Shown here one piece after another: positions 18,001 to 24,000 of a DNA stretch of 50,752 nt (position 1 is the first letter of the stretch; each line of letters starts with the position of its first letter). A program made the position numbers. The stretch comes from a virus (lineage: Duplodnaviria > Heunggongvirae > Uroviricota > Caudoviricetes), in the IMG/VR virus record IMGVR_UViG_2579778748_000002; one strand, given 5' to 3'.

Positions 18001-21000
18001 GCTGCTGCGTGATAAGCAGGAGGCGTAATGGCTACACCGCTTATTCGTGTCATGAACGGACACATCTACAAAGTACCAAATCGTCGTAAGCGTAGGCCTG
18101 AGCTGAAACCATCCGAAATACCAACACTGCTCGGATATACCGCCAGCCTGGTTGATAAAAAATGGTTGCGACTGGCAGCAAGGAGGAATCATGGCTGATT
18201 TGAGAAAAGCAGCGCGTGGTCGGGAATGCCAGGTAAGAATCCCTGGCGTATGTAATGGCAATCCTGAAACGTCTGTACTGGCACATATCCGGCTGGCTGG
18301 ATTGTGCGGTACCGGTATCAAACCGCCAGACCTGATTGCCACCATTGCATGTTCTGCCTGTCACGACGAGATCGACCGTCGCACGCATTTTGTTGACGCT
18401 GGATATGCAAAAGAATGCGCGCTGGAAGGTATGGCGAGAACGCAGGTTATCTGGCTGAAAGAGGGGGTAATTAAGGCGTGAATACCTACAATATCACATT
18501 ACCCTGGCCGCCGAGCAATAATCGCTATTACCGCCATAATCGCGGGCGCACGCACATCAGCGCAGAGGGGCAGGCATACCGCGAAAACGTCGCCCGAATC
18601 ATTAAAAACGCAATGCTGGATATCGGCCTGGCTATGCCTGTGAAAATCCGCATTGAGTGTCACATGCCGGATCGCCGTCGCCGTGACCTGGATAATCTAC
18701 AAAAGGCCGCTTTTGACGCACTCACCAAAGCAGGTTTCTGGTTGGATGATGCTCAGGTCGTTGATTACCGCGTTGTGAAGATGCCGGTTGTCAAAGGTGG
18801 AAAGCTGGAACTGACCATCACTGAACAGGGAGATGAATGATGTTTGAGTTTTATATGGCAGAACTTCTTCGCCACCGCTGGATGCGCCTGCGCTTATATC
18901 GTTTCCCTGGTTCTGTTTTGACCGATTACCGAATACTGAAGAATTACGCCAAAACCCTGACAGGAGCAGGAGTATGAAGTCAGAGATAACAATCAACTAA
19001 TACTGTTTTGTTGATTTTTGCTTGTAATTGGCGTTCTGGTCTGAGTTTTGTGGAGTAAGTTGATGCGTGATATTCAGATGGTTCTTGAGCGTTGGGGAGC
19101 GTGGGCGGCTAATAATCATGAAGATGTGACCTGGTCGTCCATTGCCGCCGGTTTTAAGGGATTAATTCCTTCAAAAGTAAAATCTCGCCCACAATGTTGT
19201 GACGATGACGCGATGATCATTTGCGGGTGCATGGCCCGTCTGAAAAAGAACAACAGCGATTTGCATGATTTATTGGTGGACTATTATGTCGGCGGCATGA
19301 CTTTTATGGCGCTTGCACGTAAGCATGGGCGATCTGATTGTTGGGTTGGCAGGATGCTCCAGAAAGCTGAGGGCGTAGTGGAGGGTATGCTGATGGTGTT
19401 GGATCTCCGATTGGAGATGGATGCTGATTGTTCGAAATAATTAAAGGAAAAGTTGCTGTCTGATTCTCATTAGTCTAACATTTTAAATGTTGGAATCGCA
19501 ACGTAGTTATTATCATATAACAGCTTGTTTCCTGATTTAGCCAGCCTCCCCAAAGGCTGGTTTTTTTCTAATAAGTATTATTTCGGGTAGGGATTTTATT
19601 GTTTAACCCATAATAATTCATTGACATTGAATCCCAACTTTTGAGCGGTTCGCACATAGTCTGCTTTTACTTTATCTGGAATAGTTGGGGTCCTTGCCAG
19701 AATCCATAGGTATTCTCTGTTCGGACCACTGACAAGAGCATACTTATACTCATCATCCAGTTTGATTACATTATAGCCACCATAGAAGGGGCCAAAAAAC
19801 GAAACCTTCAACGCTGCAGTTTTAGTATCTCCAGTAAAGTATGCTTTACCTTCGCTCTCGCTCCATTTATTTTTCGTTGGATCGTATCCACGGTTAAGTA
19901 CACGAATCCCTCCGTCGTTCCGTTTTCCATAAGTAGCGCTGACCTGTTCCAGACCACGTTCGAACCGGTTCTCGAGGCGAGCTATTTCATACCACTTTCC
20001 GAGGTAGCGGTTGGCGTCAAAATTTGTAATCGGCTGCACACCTTTAGGTGGTGTCGGGGCCTTACATGCTATAAGAGTGAAAGAGAGTGCAATGCCAGTC
20101 AACACAGGCCATAACTTCATAATAAATCCTGTACTTTTGATAGTTGAGAGTAAGTATGAAAGATAGATGATTACGACCGATCACTTAAAGAACTTTCATA
20201 CTATATTAGGAATAGTCCATAACAGAAAAATTGTCAGTGATGACGCCAGAAAGGCAATTTATTCCGTGCACTACACAGTTTATGTGTTAATGAATTAGTC
20301 AAGGGGGAGGATATGATAAAAAAACCTGTGATTGGAATCAGCGGTTGTCTGGCCGGTTCTGCTGTTCGTTTTGATGGTGGTCACAAAAGAGCTGACTTTT
20401 TAATGGACAAATTAGTGGAATGGGTAACATTCAGACCAGTATGTCCGGAAATGGCTATAGGGCTGCCAGTTCCGCGTCCTGCTCTACGTCTTGTGCGCTC
20501 GACGCAAGGAAATATACGGATGTGTTTCAGCCACGACCAGAATGAGGATGTGACAGAGAGAATGACAGAGTTTAGTCGTTCTTATATGGACAAATTAAAG
20601 GATGTATCGGGGTTTGTGGTTTGTGCTAAATCTCCCAGCTGTGGCATGGAGCGCGTGCGTGTCTATGATGAAAATGGTAATCGAGGTCGTAAAGATGGAG
20701 TGGGACTATTTACGAGCACTTTGATGGAAAAGTTTTCCTGGCTACCGGTTGAAGAGGATGGGCGATTACATGATCCAGTGCTTCGTGAGAATTTTGTTGA
20801 AAGAGTTTTTGCTTTGCATGAGCTCAATCACCTTTACAAGGAGAAATTATCAAGAAGAGAGTTATTAGCTTTTCATAGTCGTTATAAGCTTCAGTTGTTG
20901 GCGCATAGTCAGGCAGGCTATAAAGATATGGGACCATTTGTGGCTGCAATACACGAGTGGGCGGACCTTGAATCATACTTTGAGGTGTATCGTGATAAGC

Positions 21001-24000
21001 TGATGGCGATTCTCAGAAAACCTGCATCACGTAAAAATCACACGAATGTGATGATGCATATACAGGGGTATTTTAGTAACTACTTAAGTACACGCCAGCG
21101 TAAAGAGTTGAGCGAGGTTATACTTAACTATCGTTCTGGCACATTACCTCTTCTTGCGCCGTTGACTCTGCTGAAGCATTATCTGGGTGAGTATCCTAAT
21201 GATTACTTGCTTACACAGAATTACTTCGATCCCTATCCGGACGAACTGGCTCTAAGACTGATGGTAAATTAATTGTATGCGATATCATCCAAAAGGATGA
21301 GTTCCTGCATGCAGGATATTTACAATCGTAAAAACTACACTATGATACCCAGAGTGTCAGTTTGTATAAAAACTCTGTTTACGCTGAAGAAACCATTGAG
21401 ATGCAACTTAAAGTTGGTAAACATGCCAGTCAAAATATATAATATTATGATTCCACGCAGCTATATATAATATAACAGATTGGTTTAATAATTTGTCTTT
21501 GTGAGTTAAATACATAATTTTATACTTGTGATGCAATGAGATTTTCCTTATTGTTGAACTGGCGAATATTGATTTTCCACCTATACTTACTTGGTGTAAC
21601 CCCAATGATATCAGGTGGATAATATGCCATACATATGTTCTATCATTTTGGTGTTGAACTCGTTTGATGTCCGAATTGGTAAAGAAGATATTTTATTTAA
21701 AAAAGGAAGTGCTGTTCTCATTGATTAAAATTTAAAAGATTTTTTTCATCAAATATAGATCATGCAATGATCGTAGATGTTGAAGAGAAAACAGTTAATG
21801 ATTTCTTTAAAAGCAACACACTCTCACCTTTTTCTGTAAGAAGGTTTTATCCGGCATACTTGATGGTGGAATGTGAAGATTTTTCATTGTTAAAGAACTT
21901 GATTGCATGCTTGAATTGTGATGGCAGAACTGTGGATTTTGTTAGAAATCAAATATCACTTGCATGTCTTGCTATCTTATCTTCAGAGAAAATAGTGCAA
22001 AGTTTTTTATTTGGATGTCTTAATAGTTTAGGAAGTAAAGTTAAGGCTATTATTCACACGGATATATCTGCAGCATGGAGACTTTGTGATATATCTTCAA
22101 GACTGTATCTGAGTGAAAGTCTGTTAAAAAGAAAATTAAAGCACGAAGGCTTATCATTTAGTAAGTTAATTCTTGAAGAGCGAATGGTGATGGCGGAAAG
22201 GTTATTAAGCTACAATTTATATTCTGTTGGAAAAGTTGCTGAGATATGCGGTTATGAAAACACGTCATATTTTGTAAGTGTTTTCAGAAGATATTTTGGT
22301 GTTCCTCCCCATCAATATTCATCAAGATTTTTTTTAGAAAAGACATGATGTAACGTGATGCGTTTTAATGATTTTGTAATTTTCGTATTTGATAATTGTA
22401 TGATGCTTTCAGCTACGCCAGAATAATCGCTGGCGTTTTTCTTTTTGAATAGATGTTCAAGCCTTACGCTAATGTAACTTCTATACCTTTCCTCTTCGTT
22501 CCGAACCGTGTACACCATCCGTTATTTGCGGAGGTGAGGCTATGAAATCCATGGATAAGTTAACAACGGGCATTGCCTACGGCACCTCCGCAGGCAGTGC
22601 TGGCTACTGGTTTTTACAGCTGCTCGATAAAGTCACGCCCTCACAGTGGGCAGCAATAGGTGTGCTGGGTAGCTTGGTATTTGGCCTGCTGACGTACCTG
22701 ACAAACCTTTATTTCAAGATTAAAGAAGATAAGCGCAAGGCTGCGAGAGGTGAATAATGCCTCCATCATTACGAAAAGCCGTTGCTGCTGCTATTGGTGG
22801 CGGAGCAATTGCTATAGCATCAGTGTTAATCACTGGTCCAGGTGGTAACGATGGTCTGGAGGGTGTCAGCTACATACCATACAAAGATATTGTTGGTGTA
22901 TGGACTGTATGTCACGGGCATACAGGAAAAGACATCATGCTCGGTAAAACGTATACCAAAGCAGAATGCAAAGCACTCTTGAATAAAGACCTTGCCACTG
23001 TCGCCAGACAAATTAACCCGTACATCAAAGTCGATATACCGGAAACAACGCGCGGCGCTCTTTACTCATTCGTTTACAACGTGGGTGCTGGCAATTTCAG
23101 AACATCGACGCTTCTTCGCAAAATAAACCAGGGCGATATCAAAGGCGCATGTGATCAGTTACGTCGCTGGACATATGCTGGCGGTAAGCAATGGAAAGGT
23201 CTCATGACTCGTCGTGAGATTGAGCGTGAAATCTGTTTGTGGGGTCAGCAATGAACAGAGTAACCGCGATTATCTCCGCTCTGGTTATCTGCATCATCGT
23301 CTGCCTGTCATGGGCTGTTAATCATTACCGTGATAACGCCATTACCTACAAAGCCCAGCGCGACAAAAATGCCAGAGAACTGAAGCTGGCGAACGCGGCA
23401 ATTACTGACATGCAGATGCGTCAGCGTGATGTTGCTGCGCTCGATGCAAAATACACGAAGGAGTTAGCTGATGCGAAAGCTGAAAATGATGCTCTGCGTG
23501 ATGATGTTGCCGCTGGTCGTCGTCGGTTGCACATCAAAGCAGTCTGTCAGTCAGTGCGTGAAGCCACCACCGCCTCCGGCGTGGATAATGCAGCCTCCCC
23601 CCGACTGGCAGACACCGCTGAACGGGATTATTTCACCCTCAGAGAGAGGCTGATCACGATGCAAAAACAACTGGAAGGAACCCAGAAGTATATTAATGAG
23701 CAGTGCAGATAGAGCTGCCCATATCGATGGGCAACTCATGCAATTATTGTGAGCAATAGACACGCGCTTCCAGCGGAGTATAAATGCCTAAAGTAATAAA
23801 ACCGAGCAATCCATTTACGAATGTTTGCTGGGTTTCTGTTTTAACAACATTTTCTGCGCCGCCACAAATTTTGGCTGCATCAACAGTTTTCTCCTGTCCA
23901 ATTCCCGAAACGAAGAAATGATGGGTGATGGTTTCCTTTGGTGTTACTGCTGTCGGTTTGTTTCCAACAGTAAACGTCTGTTGAGCACATCCTGTAATAA

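Follow-up and report, generated by a model that had tools for sequence, protein, structure and literature searches.

A probable RudS-family tRNA 4-thiouridine desulfidase encoded between Q and the lysis genes of a lambda-like prophage

Introduction

The closest described relatives of the gene considered here, an open reading frame (ORF) of IMG/VR virus record IMGVR_UViG_2579778748_000002, are the RudS transfer RNA (tRNA) desulfidases. The record comprises 50,752 nucleotides, and the whole of that stretch is referred to below as the window. Six RudS proteins, among them 'RudS_vir' (gp66 of Escherichia phage 1H12), lowered the 4-thiouridine (s4U) content of E. coli tRNA by 4.7- to 26-fold, whereas stand-alone TudS and E. 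coli YbgA did not lower it (Jamontas et al. 2024; PMC11417400). The reaction leaves uridine at position 8 (or 9) of the tRNA. For RudS_KT of Pseudomonas putida (PP_0741), the biochemically characterised prototype, s4U-tRNA desulfidase activity was also shown in vitro; its DUF1722 domain docks the tRNA anticodon arm, and the protein reduced the growth delay induced in E. coli by ultraviolet A (UVA) (PMC11417400). On 4-thiouracil RudS proteins permitted growth only after a lag, and on 2-thiouracil there was no growth (PMC11417400).

TudS (DUF523Vcz, PDB 6Z92/6Z96) is a single-domain protein of approximately 150-170 amino acids without DUF1722, which acts on free bases and nucleotides and leaves tRNA s4U intact in vivo. 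TudS enzymes prefer 4-thio-uridine monophosphate (4-thio-UMP); Cys10, Cys43 and Cys104 are the cluster ligands and Glu45, Ser101 and Ser103 are catalytic, within C-x-E and S-x-S-C motifs (PMC10611767). E. coli has been said to lack RudS (PMC11417400 and a 2026 review).

The window carries another allele of a phage gene that has already been characterised by experiment: the enzyme family was named in 2024, together with tests of the phage ortholog, and the mechanism is published too. Taken alone the finding matters little, being a correct but ordinary annotation of a known enzyme. What is new with respect to the literature searched is the role and timing of rudS in a phage as a question, and that the gene occurs in approximately one fifth of complete E. 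coli genomes. It may be asked why a UV-inducible temperate phage carries an eraser of the cell's UVA-sensing tRNA base.

Results and Discussion

Identity and domain architecture of the gene product

The ORF and its two domains are located as follows.

20313..21272, + strand: rudS, a TudS-DUF1722 fusion, predicted tRNA 4-thiouridine desulfidase (Pfam; 93% identity to RudS_vir; intact in 84/84 copies)
20331..20759, + strand: predicted TudS catalytic domain, residues 7-149, with C12, C44, C110, E46, R55, S107 and S109 (Pfam, conservation, profile alignment, AlphaFold/Foldseek)
20886..21239, + strand: DUF1722 domain, residues 192-309, predicted to be all-helical (Pfam, model; role taken from RudS_KT)

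The preliminary description of this DNA, made from the sequence alone, had proposed a 319-aa protein of TudS-like DUF523/DUF1722 architecture, and both the ORF and the architecture hold. The ORF runs from an ATG to its stop codon without interruption and is preceded by a purine-rich Shine-Dalgarno-like stretch (AAGGGGGAGG). Pfam PF04463, '2-thiouracil desulfurase' (formerly DUF523), matched residues 7-149 over the whole profile (1-141) with an E-value of 2.1e-40, and PF08349 (DUF1722) matched residues 192-309, again over the whole profile, with an E-value of 4e-40; both matches far exceed the curated cut-offs. The same description had treated the protein as uncharacterised, a view superseded by the 2024 assays of an ortholog with which it shares 297 of 319 residues (93%) without gaps (RudS_vir, YP_009909557). 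None of the 22 substitutions separating the two falls at a catalytic position. RudS_vir is alike in length, ligand numbering, cassette and genome position; its locus differs in the adjacent AraC-like gene, which is whole in 1H12 and is a pseudogene in the window. We put the probability that the window gene encodes a RudS-family tRNA s4U desulfidase at approximately 0.85.

Identical length and architecture are found in RudS_ST (ORF319, Salmonella enterica LT2 STM1389) and in the 319-aa YbgA/RudS proteins of Citrobacter, Enterobacter and Serratia. Unlike the window copy, which is phage cargo without such a regulator, these genes are chromosomal and lie in clusters of the light-stress type or beside a MerR regulator. 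RudS_KT shares the two-domain design and is distant from the window protein (family representatives are 35-55% identical). The gene is annotated as 'YbgA family protein' by the NCBI Prokaryotic Genome Annotation Pipeline, and its PHROGs family, phrog_3275, is listed as 'unknown function'. The C-terminal half does match the NCBIfam YbgA model NF007549, which describes the stand-alone DUF1722 protein of E. coli K-12 (b0707, 169 aa), with only residues 160-315 covered and a score of 189.4 bits against an equivalog cut-off of 237. The K-12 protein, by contrast, has no catalytic domain and no effect on s4U.

An AlphaFold (AF2) model was built on an alignment of 138 diverse sequences, described below, and reached a predicted local distance difference test (pLDDT) score of 97.2 and a predicted template modelling (pTM) score of 0.93. 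The only significant Foldseek matches of this model in the PDB were five TudS entries (probability 1.00, TM-score 0.72-0.77, approximately 26% identity), consistent with a shared fold and shared Cys, Glu and Ser motifs in the N-terminal domain; the same search of the PDB gave no solved structural relative for the helical DUF1722 half. A first AlphaFold run on 18 sequences, all at least 70% identical, had yielded a pLDDT of 55.7 with Foldseek matches that were noise, and was discarded.

Iron-sulfur ligands and catalytic residues

The protein has cysteines at positions 12, 44, 71, 104 and 110. An N-terminal Fe-S ligand triad had been anticipated at cysteines 12, 44 and 105; the existence of the triad and its first two members were borne out by alignment to the TudS ligand positions, while residue 105 proved to be alanine and the third ligand is placed at Cys110. 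The family alignment consisted of 137 diverse full-length representatives, 35-55% identical to the window protein, plus the window protein itself. Ten residues were conserved in at least 90% of its sequences: C12, C44, P45, E46, R55, S107, P108, S109, C110 and G111. Cys104 is poorly kept, the consensus residue being lysine. Cys12 and Cys44 align with Cys10 and Cys43 of TudS, the first two ligand positions. Searches of the PDB by phmmer with the single protein or a close-homolog profile aligned only the first ~60 TudS residues and did not place the third cysteine, and a fragment query matched nothing; it was the diverse 138-sequence profile that later placed it (TudS, PDB 6z92; E-value 7.8e-16). 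Because this profile puts the SPSCG motif (S107-P-S109-C110-G) on S101-P-S103-C104-G of TudS, the ligand triad is predicted to be C12/C44/C110. The same ligand numbering is given for RudS_vir, and likewise for RudS_ST, in Table 1 of the RudS paper (PMC11417400).

Residues E46, R55, S107 and S109 and the triad correspond to E51, R60, S111, S113 and C17/C49/C114 of RudS_KT. The substitutions E51M, S111M, S113M and R60M each abolish activity of RudS_KT, as do most substitutions of ligand cysteines in RudS proteins, with the exception of C47A in RudS_TT, which is still active (PMC11417400). S239-R240 lie within a conserved A-[ST]-R-x-x-H-x-N-V motif; their match to the tRNA-contact residues S243/R244 of RudS_KT is one of numbering offset only.

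Proposed mechanism

The enzymology would follow the published TudS/RudS mechanism, which is well supported here by the conserved residues and the predicted fold. The N-terminal TudS domain would hold a [4Fe-4S] cluster on Cys12, Cys44 and Cys110, leaving the fourth iron free to bind the sulfur atom of s4U at position 8 (or 9) of the tRNA. Arg55, Ser107 and Ser109 would orient Glu46 for activation of a water molecule, and the base would become uridine. Docking of the tRNA by the helical DUF1722 domain would confer a preference for tRNA over free bases. Plain E. coli would be without this capacity because its chromosomal YbgA has no catalytic domain. The likely pay-off would be fewer UVA-induced s4U8-C13 crosslinks in tRNA, and hence less translation arrest and a smaller stringent response in sunlit cells. 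The substrates suggested in the preliminary description fared unequally: tRNA thiolation agrees with the loss of tRNA s4U caused by RudS_vir, whereas free thiouracils are poor substrates or non-substrates in vivo.

Genome context and expression

The window contains a complete lambda-like prophage inserted beside ybhC. Positions 19400-22600 (3.2 kb compared) are identical to a prophage of E. coli CUVET16-394. The elements run in the order Q, candidate PR', tR'-like hairpin, blc (-), rudS, AraC/YdeO-like pseudogene, terminator-like hairpin, holin, endolysin, spanin and, on the opposite strand, bor/iss. The elements surrounding rudS are listed below.

19063..19440, + strand: Q, late-gene antiterminator (Q21-like, PF06530; Pfam E-value 2.5e-51; phage 21 Q, PDB 6p18, E-value 1.9e-8)
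19453..19481, + strand: candidate late promoter PR' (-35 TTGCTG, 17-nt spacer, -10 TAACAT; found by eye, weak consensus match)
19539..19569, + strand: candidate tR' intrinsic terminator (9-bp stem, then U7; found by scan, -14.9 kcal/mol, z -3.9)
19596..20120, - strand: blc, outer-membrane lipocalin lipoprotein, first cassette gene, antisense to the late transcript (PF08212, E-value 7e-44; NCBIfam Blc 316 bits, cut-off 267)
20144..20171, + strand: weak promoter-like site upstream of rudS (TTGAGA-16-GATGAT, 9/12; found by scan, hexamers kept in four lineages)
21319..21346, + strand: promoter-like site (TTTACA-16-TATGAT, 10/12; found by scan, hexamers kept in three otherwise divergent lineages)
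21624..22348, + strand: AraC/YdeO-like regulator pseudogene (frameshift and stop; PF12833 and PF00165 on a 193-aa remnant)
22415..22444, + strand: intrinsic terminator-like hairpin with U-run, closing the cassette (found by scan, -11.3 kcal/mol, z -2.7)
22542..22757, + strand: holin S (essD-type), first lysis gene (ORF list; essD in the identical prophage)

The lysis and morphogenesis genes of lambdoid phages depend on one transcript, which starts at PR' and is modified by Q; between Q and S, stx2 is the classic cargo. The cassette resembles such Q-S slot morons (stx, nmpC) in lying between Q/PR'/tR' and the holin gene and in having a composition foreign to its flanks. Compared with self-expressed morons, it has the terminator at 22415-22444 and, before rudS, only the weak promoter-like site at 20144-20171. 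rudS shares its strand with Q and with the lysis genes S, R and Rz (22542 onward), so that its earlier placement on the late strand between tR' and S stands, with a tR'-like hairpin upstream and S downstream. Q is annotated as 'antiterminator Q family protein' in the identical prophage. The -35 of the PR' candidate is kept in four prophage lineages, two of which have a different -10; the site escaped the consensus scan. The stem of the tR'-like hairpin is identical in four lineages. An Rfam scan of the Q-S region gave nothing beyond a sub-threshold match on this hairpin (RF02278, 19526-19569 (+), 28.6 bits against a gathering score of 50), which most likely merely reflects the terminator stem-loop.

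A consensus scan of the region detected no promoter-like site between the cassette and S, and an arrangement fitting PR'/tR' occurs only upstream of the cassette; sense transcription of rudS after induction is therefore to be expected. Q-driven late transcription of rudS is thus predicted, on the sound basis of gene order. The gene may in addition be expressed at a low level in the lysogen, and expression there is at least as plausible as late expression. We infer both the timing of expression and the physiological benefit.

The best sigma-70-like site of the region, at 21319-21346, lies 47 nt past the rudS stop codon and probably serves the AraC-like gene, with an AT-rich leader of approximately 280 nt. 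A MerR-type long-spacer promoter was sought by eye upstream of rudS; the only -35 candidate, TTGTCA at 20231, has no suitable -10, and the stretch on its 3' side that should contain one is not conserved in 1H12. The hairpin at 22415-22444 precedes the holin gene by 100 nt and is kept in three lineages though the flanks diverge. The G+C content is approximately 41-47% in rudS and 31-33% in the AraC-like gene, against approximately 50% in the flanks (31-45% for the cassette).

Several points weigh against the reading of the gene as a late-expressed eraser of tRNA s4U with a benefit under UVA. The first concern the enzyme: RudS_vir desulfidated tRNA less than the other RudS proteins despite good expression, and among them it allowed a uracil auxotroph to grow on 4-thiouracil after the shortest lag (PMC11417400); its substrate preference may be broader. 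The loss of tRNA s4U is known from the 93%-identical RudS_vir, rather than from the window sequence, and the benefit under UVA is known only from the overexpressed Pseudomonas RudS_KT (PMC11417400). The others concern expression: PR' was assigned by eye on a weak consensus match, and the terminator between the cassette and S and the divergent blc are each as compatible with autonomous expression in the lysogen as with late expression.

Distribution, conservation and selection

The order Q, blc (-), rudS, helix-turn-helix gene, holin was identical in every context inspected. These comprised phage 1H12, eleven further sequenced phages, three more E. coli prophages whose neighbouring modules differ, including a decayed Qin-like element of strain HS, and 80 of 80 IMG/VR contigs examined. 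Among the viral contigs blc was full length beside rudS in 79 of 80, the remaining copy being cut by the contig end, and the AraC-like gene was split or missing in about a dozen, as it is broken in the window.

The 3' end of Q with the PR'/tR' segment, in the allele of the window, was present in 1115 complete E. coli genomes. Because a lipocalin gene is annotated under the same match in nearly all of the 40 genomes sampled, the Q allele and the cassette travel together. Relatives having the Q and PR' of the window without the cassette, by which the insertion borders and the position of PR' might be fixed, were sought in phage and E. coli collections and none was found.

rudS was detected in 1064 of 5426 complete E. 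coli genomes (approximately 20%; at least 80% coverage and at least 90% identity), always as prophage cargo. The statement that E. coli lacks RudS holds for K-12 and B, not for the species. Given this prevalence, strains with different prophage content may also differ in near-UV and s4U physiology. All 84 extracted copies were intact with every catalytic motif, and represented 42 nucleotide alleles and 23 protein variants. Relative to the 1H12 allele, the window gene has a dS of 0.30 and a dN of 0.032 (dN/dS 0.11); rudS is under purifying selection.

Strains BL21 (NZ_CP053601.1, 1558651-1558797) and REL606 (NC_012967.1, ~1617588) retain the Q allele and blc, with rudS reduced to a 147-bp remnant of its 5' end. 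BL21(DE3), the host of the published RudS assays, is thus truly RudS-negative, but through deletion.

Outside phages, the nearest relatives are chromosomally encoded 319-aa proteins of Citrobacter, Serratia, Enterobacter and Salmonella, 70-76% identical to the window protein. In Citrobacter braakii rudS ends a cluster of short-chain dehydrogenase/reductase (SDR), amine-oxidase, DUF1365, cyclopropane fatty acid (CFA) synthase, DUF2878 and DUF3833 genes. Clusters of SDR, amine oxidase, DUF1365 and CFA synthase are often photolyase-linked and light-responsive. rudS genes have also been reported often to lie within light-responsive operons (PMC11417400). With its closest relatives chromosomal and in such settings, the prophage rudS therefore has the look of an enterobacterial housekeeping or stress gene acquired by capture.

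In two Salmonella-like contigs (L006, 6001-6960; L007, 3704-4663) a 73%-identical rudS lies between ttcA, encoding tRNA 2-thiocytidine synthetase, and a DUF1367 phage gene. Rac-type prophages integrate beside ttcA in E. coli. These copies suggest a second, independent association of rudS with prophages.

Role of rudS in the prophage

Four explanations of the gene's role were considered. At slightly under even odds we place lysogenic conversion, in which RudS is made in uninduced cells and provides E. coli with an s4U eraser, yielding UVA tolerance together with tuning of the stringent response or of tRNA stability, and in which the phage benefits only indirectly. A moron of this kind would account for the G+C content of the cassette relative to its flanks, for the conserved terminator that closes it ahead of S and for the divergent blc, which must have its own promoter. 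It agrees with the retention of the cassette in a defective prophage, and with purifying selection on rudS while the adjacent AraC-like gene decays. The nearest relatives being chromosomal rudS genes of Citrobacter, Enterobacter and Serratia, placed in Citrobacter at the end of the SDR, amine oxidase, DUF1365 and CFA-synthase cluster, also favours it, as does the survey of infant-gut lambda phages in which blc was counted among the morons of more than 50% (Mathieu et al. 2020). Two observations run counter to such a role: no convincing sigma-70 promoter was found upstream of rudS, where the best candidate matched 9/12 positions, and the MerR/LitR regulator that accompanies chromosomal rudS is absent here.

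Alternatively, rudS may serve the lytic cycle, which we regard as possible, with the odds clearly against it. RudS made late would erase s4U from host tRNA after UV induction, so that UVA crosslinking, uncharged-tRNA signalling and guanosine tetraphosphate (ppGpp) no longer throttle synthesis of the late proteins, and burst size would rise in sunlit cells. The sense orientation of the gene between the tR'-like terminator and S would place it on the Q-antiterminated transcript, there is just one weak promoter-like site upstream of it, and the Q allele of the window is linked with the cassette. Functional, virion-forming infant-gut lambda phages carry the cassette, and RudS_KT lessens the UVA growth delay (PMC11417400). 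A lytic function sits less easily with the decayed Qin-like prophage of strain HS, in which the cassette is intact although the early region has been lost (an IS1 element and truncated genes lie upstream of Q). RudS made late would, moreover, have little time to alter a stable tRNA pool, and nothing suggests that it repairs crosslinks already formed. Roles in lysogenic conversion and in the lytic cycle may both hold, and we do not choose between them.

A more novel reading would have RudS serve the phage itself in an auxiliary role, the virus thus encoding its own tRNA-modification eraser, transcribed under Q after UV induction, whose removal of the UVA-sensitive s4U8 from host tRNA keeps translation on and ppGpp low during virion building, in a species of which approximately one fifth of strains are RudS-positive. 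We consider this unlikely. If true, it would contradict the statement that E. coli lacks an s4U eraser and could explain differences between strains in near-UV growth delay.

It is improbable that the enzyme acts mainly in salvage, desulfurising free 4-thiouracil or 4-thio-UMP from degraded tRNA in the manner of stand-alone TudS. The behaviour of RudS_vir described above, with its short lag on 4-thiouracil and comparatively low activity on tRNA, and the preference of TudS enzymes for 4-thio-UMP (PMC10611767) would fit such a function. RudS_vir nevertheless lowered tRNA s4U, and no RudS equalled TudS in supporting growth on thiouracils, nor did any use 2-thiouracil. In addition, purifying selection bears equally on the tRNA-docking DUF1722 domain and on the catalytic domain, with variable residues spread over both.

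Counter-defence, whereby removal of s4U would blind or evade some system of the host or of a competitor by which thiolated tRNA is sensed or cleaved, had been raised in the preliminary description and is highly improbable: it has in its favour only the general precedent of phages manipulating tRNA pools, whereas no PADLOC family matched RudS, Blc or the AraC-like protein at an E-value of 0.01 or below, the PHROG family is of 'unknown function', the gene derives from a chromosomal gene of housekeeping, light-stress type, and literature searches yielded no defence system keyed to s4U8; on any part played by DUF1722, YbgA or s4U in phages or in defence, they yielded only the RudS paper.

Other features of the cassette and prophage

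Relative to the intact 243-aa gene of phage 1H12, the AraC/YdeO/GadX-like pseudogene has an in-frame TAA and a 1-nt deletion, and it is annotated as 'frameshifted' in the identical prophage. The gene in the window resembles the AraC-like acid-resistance regulators that prophages of enterohaemorrhagic E. coli carry. A serum-resistance gene of avian pathogenic E. coli, phiv142-3 orf10 (PMC7724020), was considered as a gene of the cassette and rejected, as its deletion-primer sequence is absent from the window.

There are no tRNA genes within the window. Between P and the nin region lies an inverse autotransporter gene (intimin/invasin-like adhesin) of 3.9 kb, at approximately 13366-17274 (+) as mapped from the annotation of the identical prophage, a large cargo in an unusual slot. 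Further conversion genes are bor/iss (serum survival), at 23744-24085 (-) after the lysis genes, and a gene for a Lom/Ail-family outer-membrane protein beside J, near the 3' end. The early region of the prophage includes sieB and ral.

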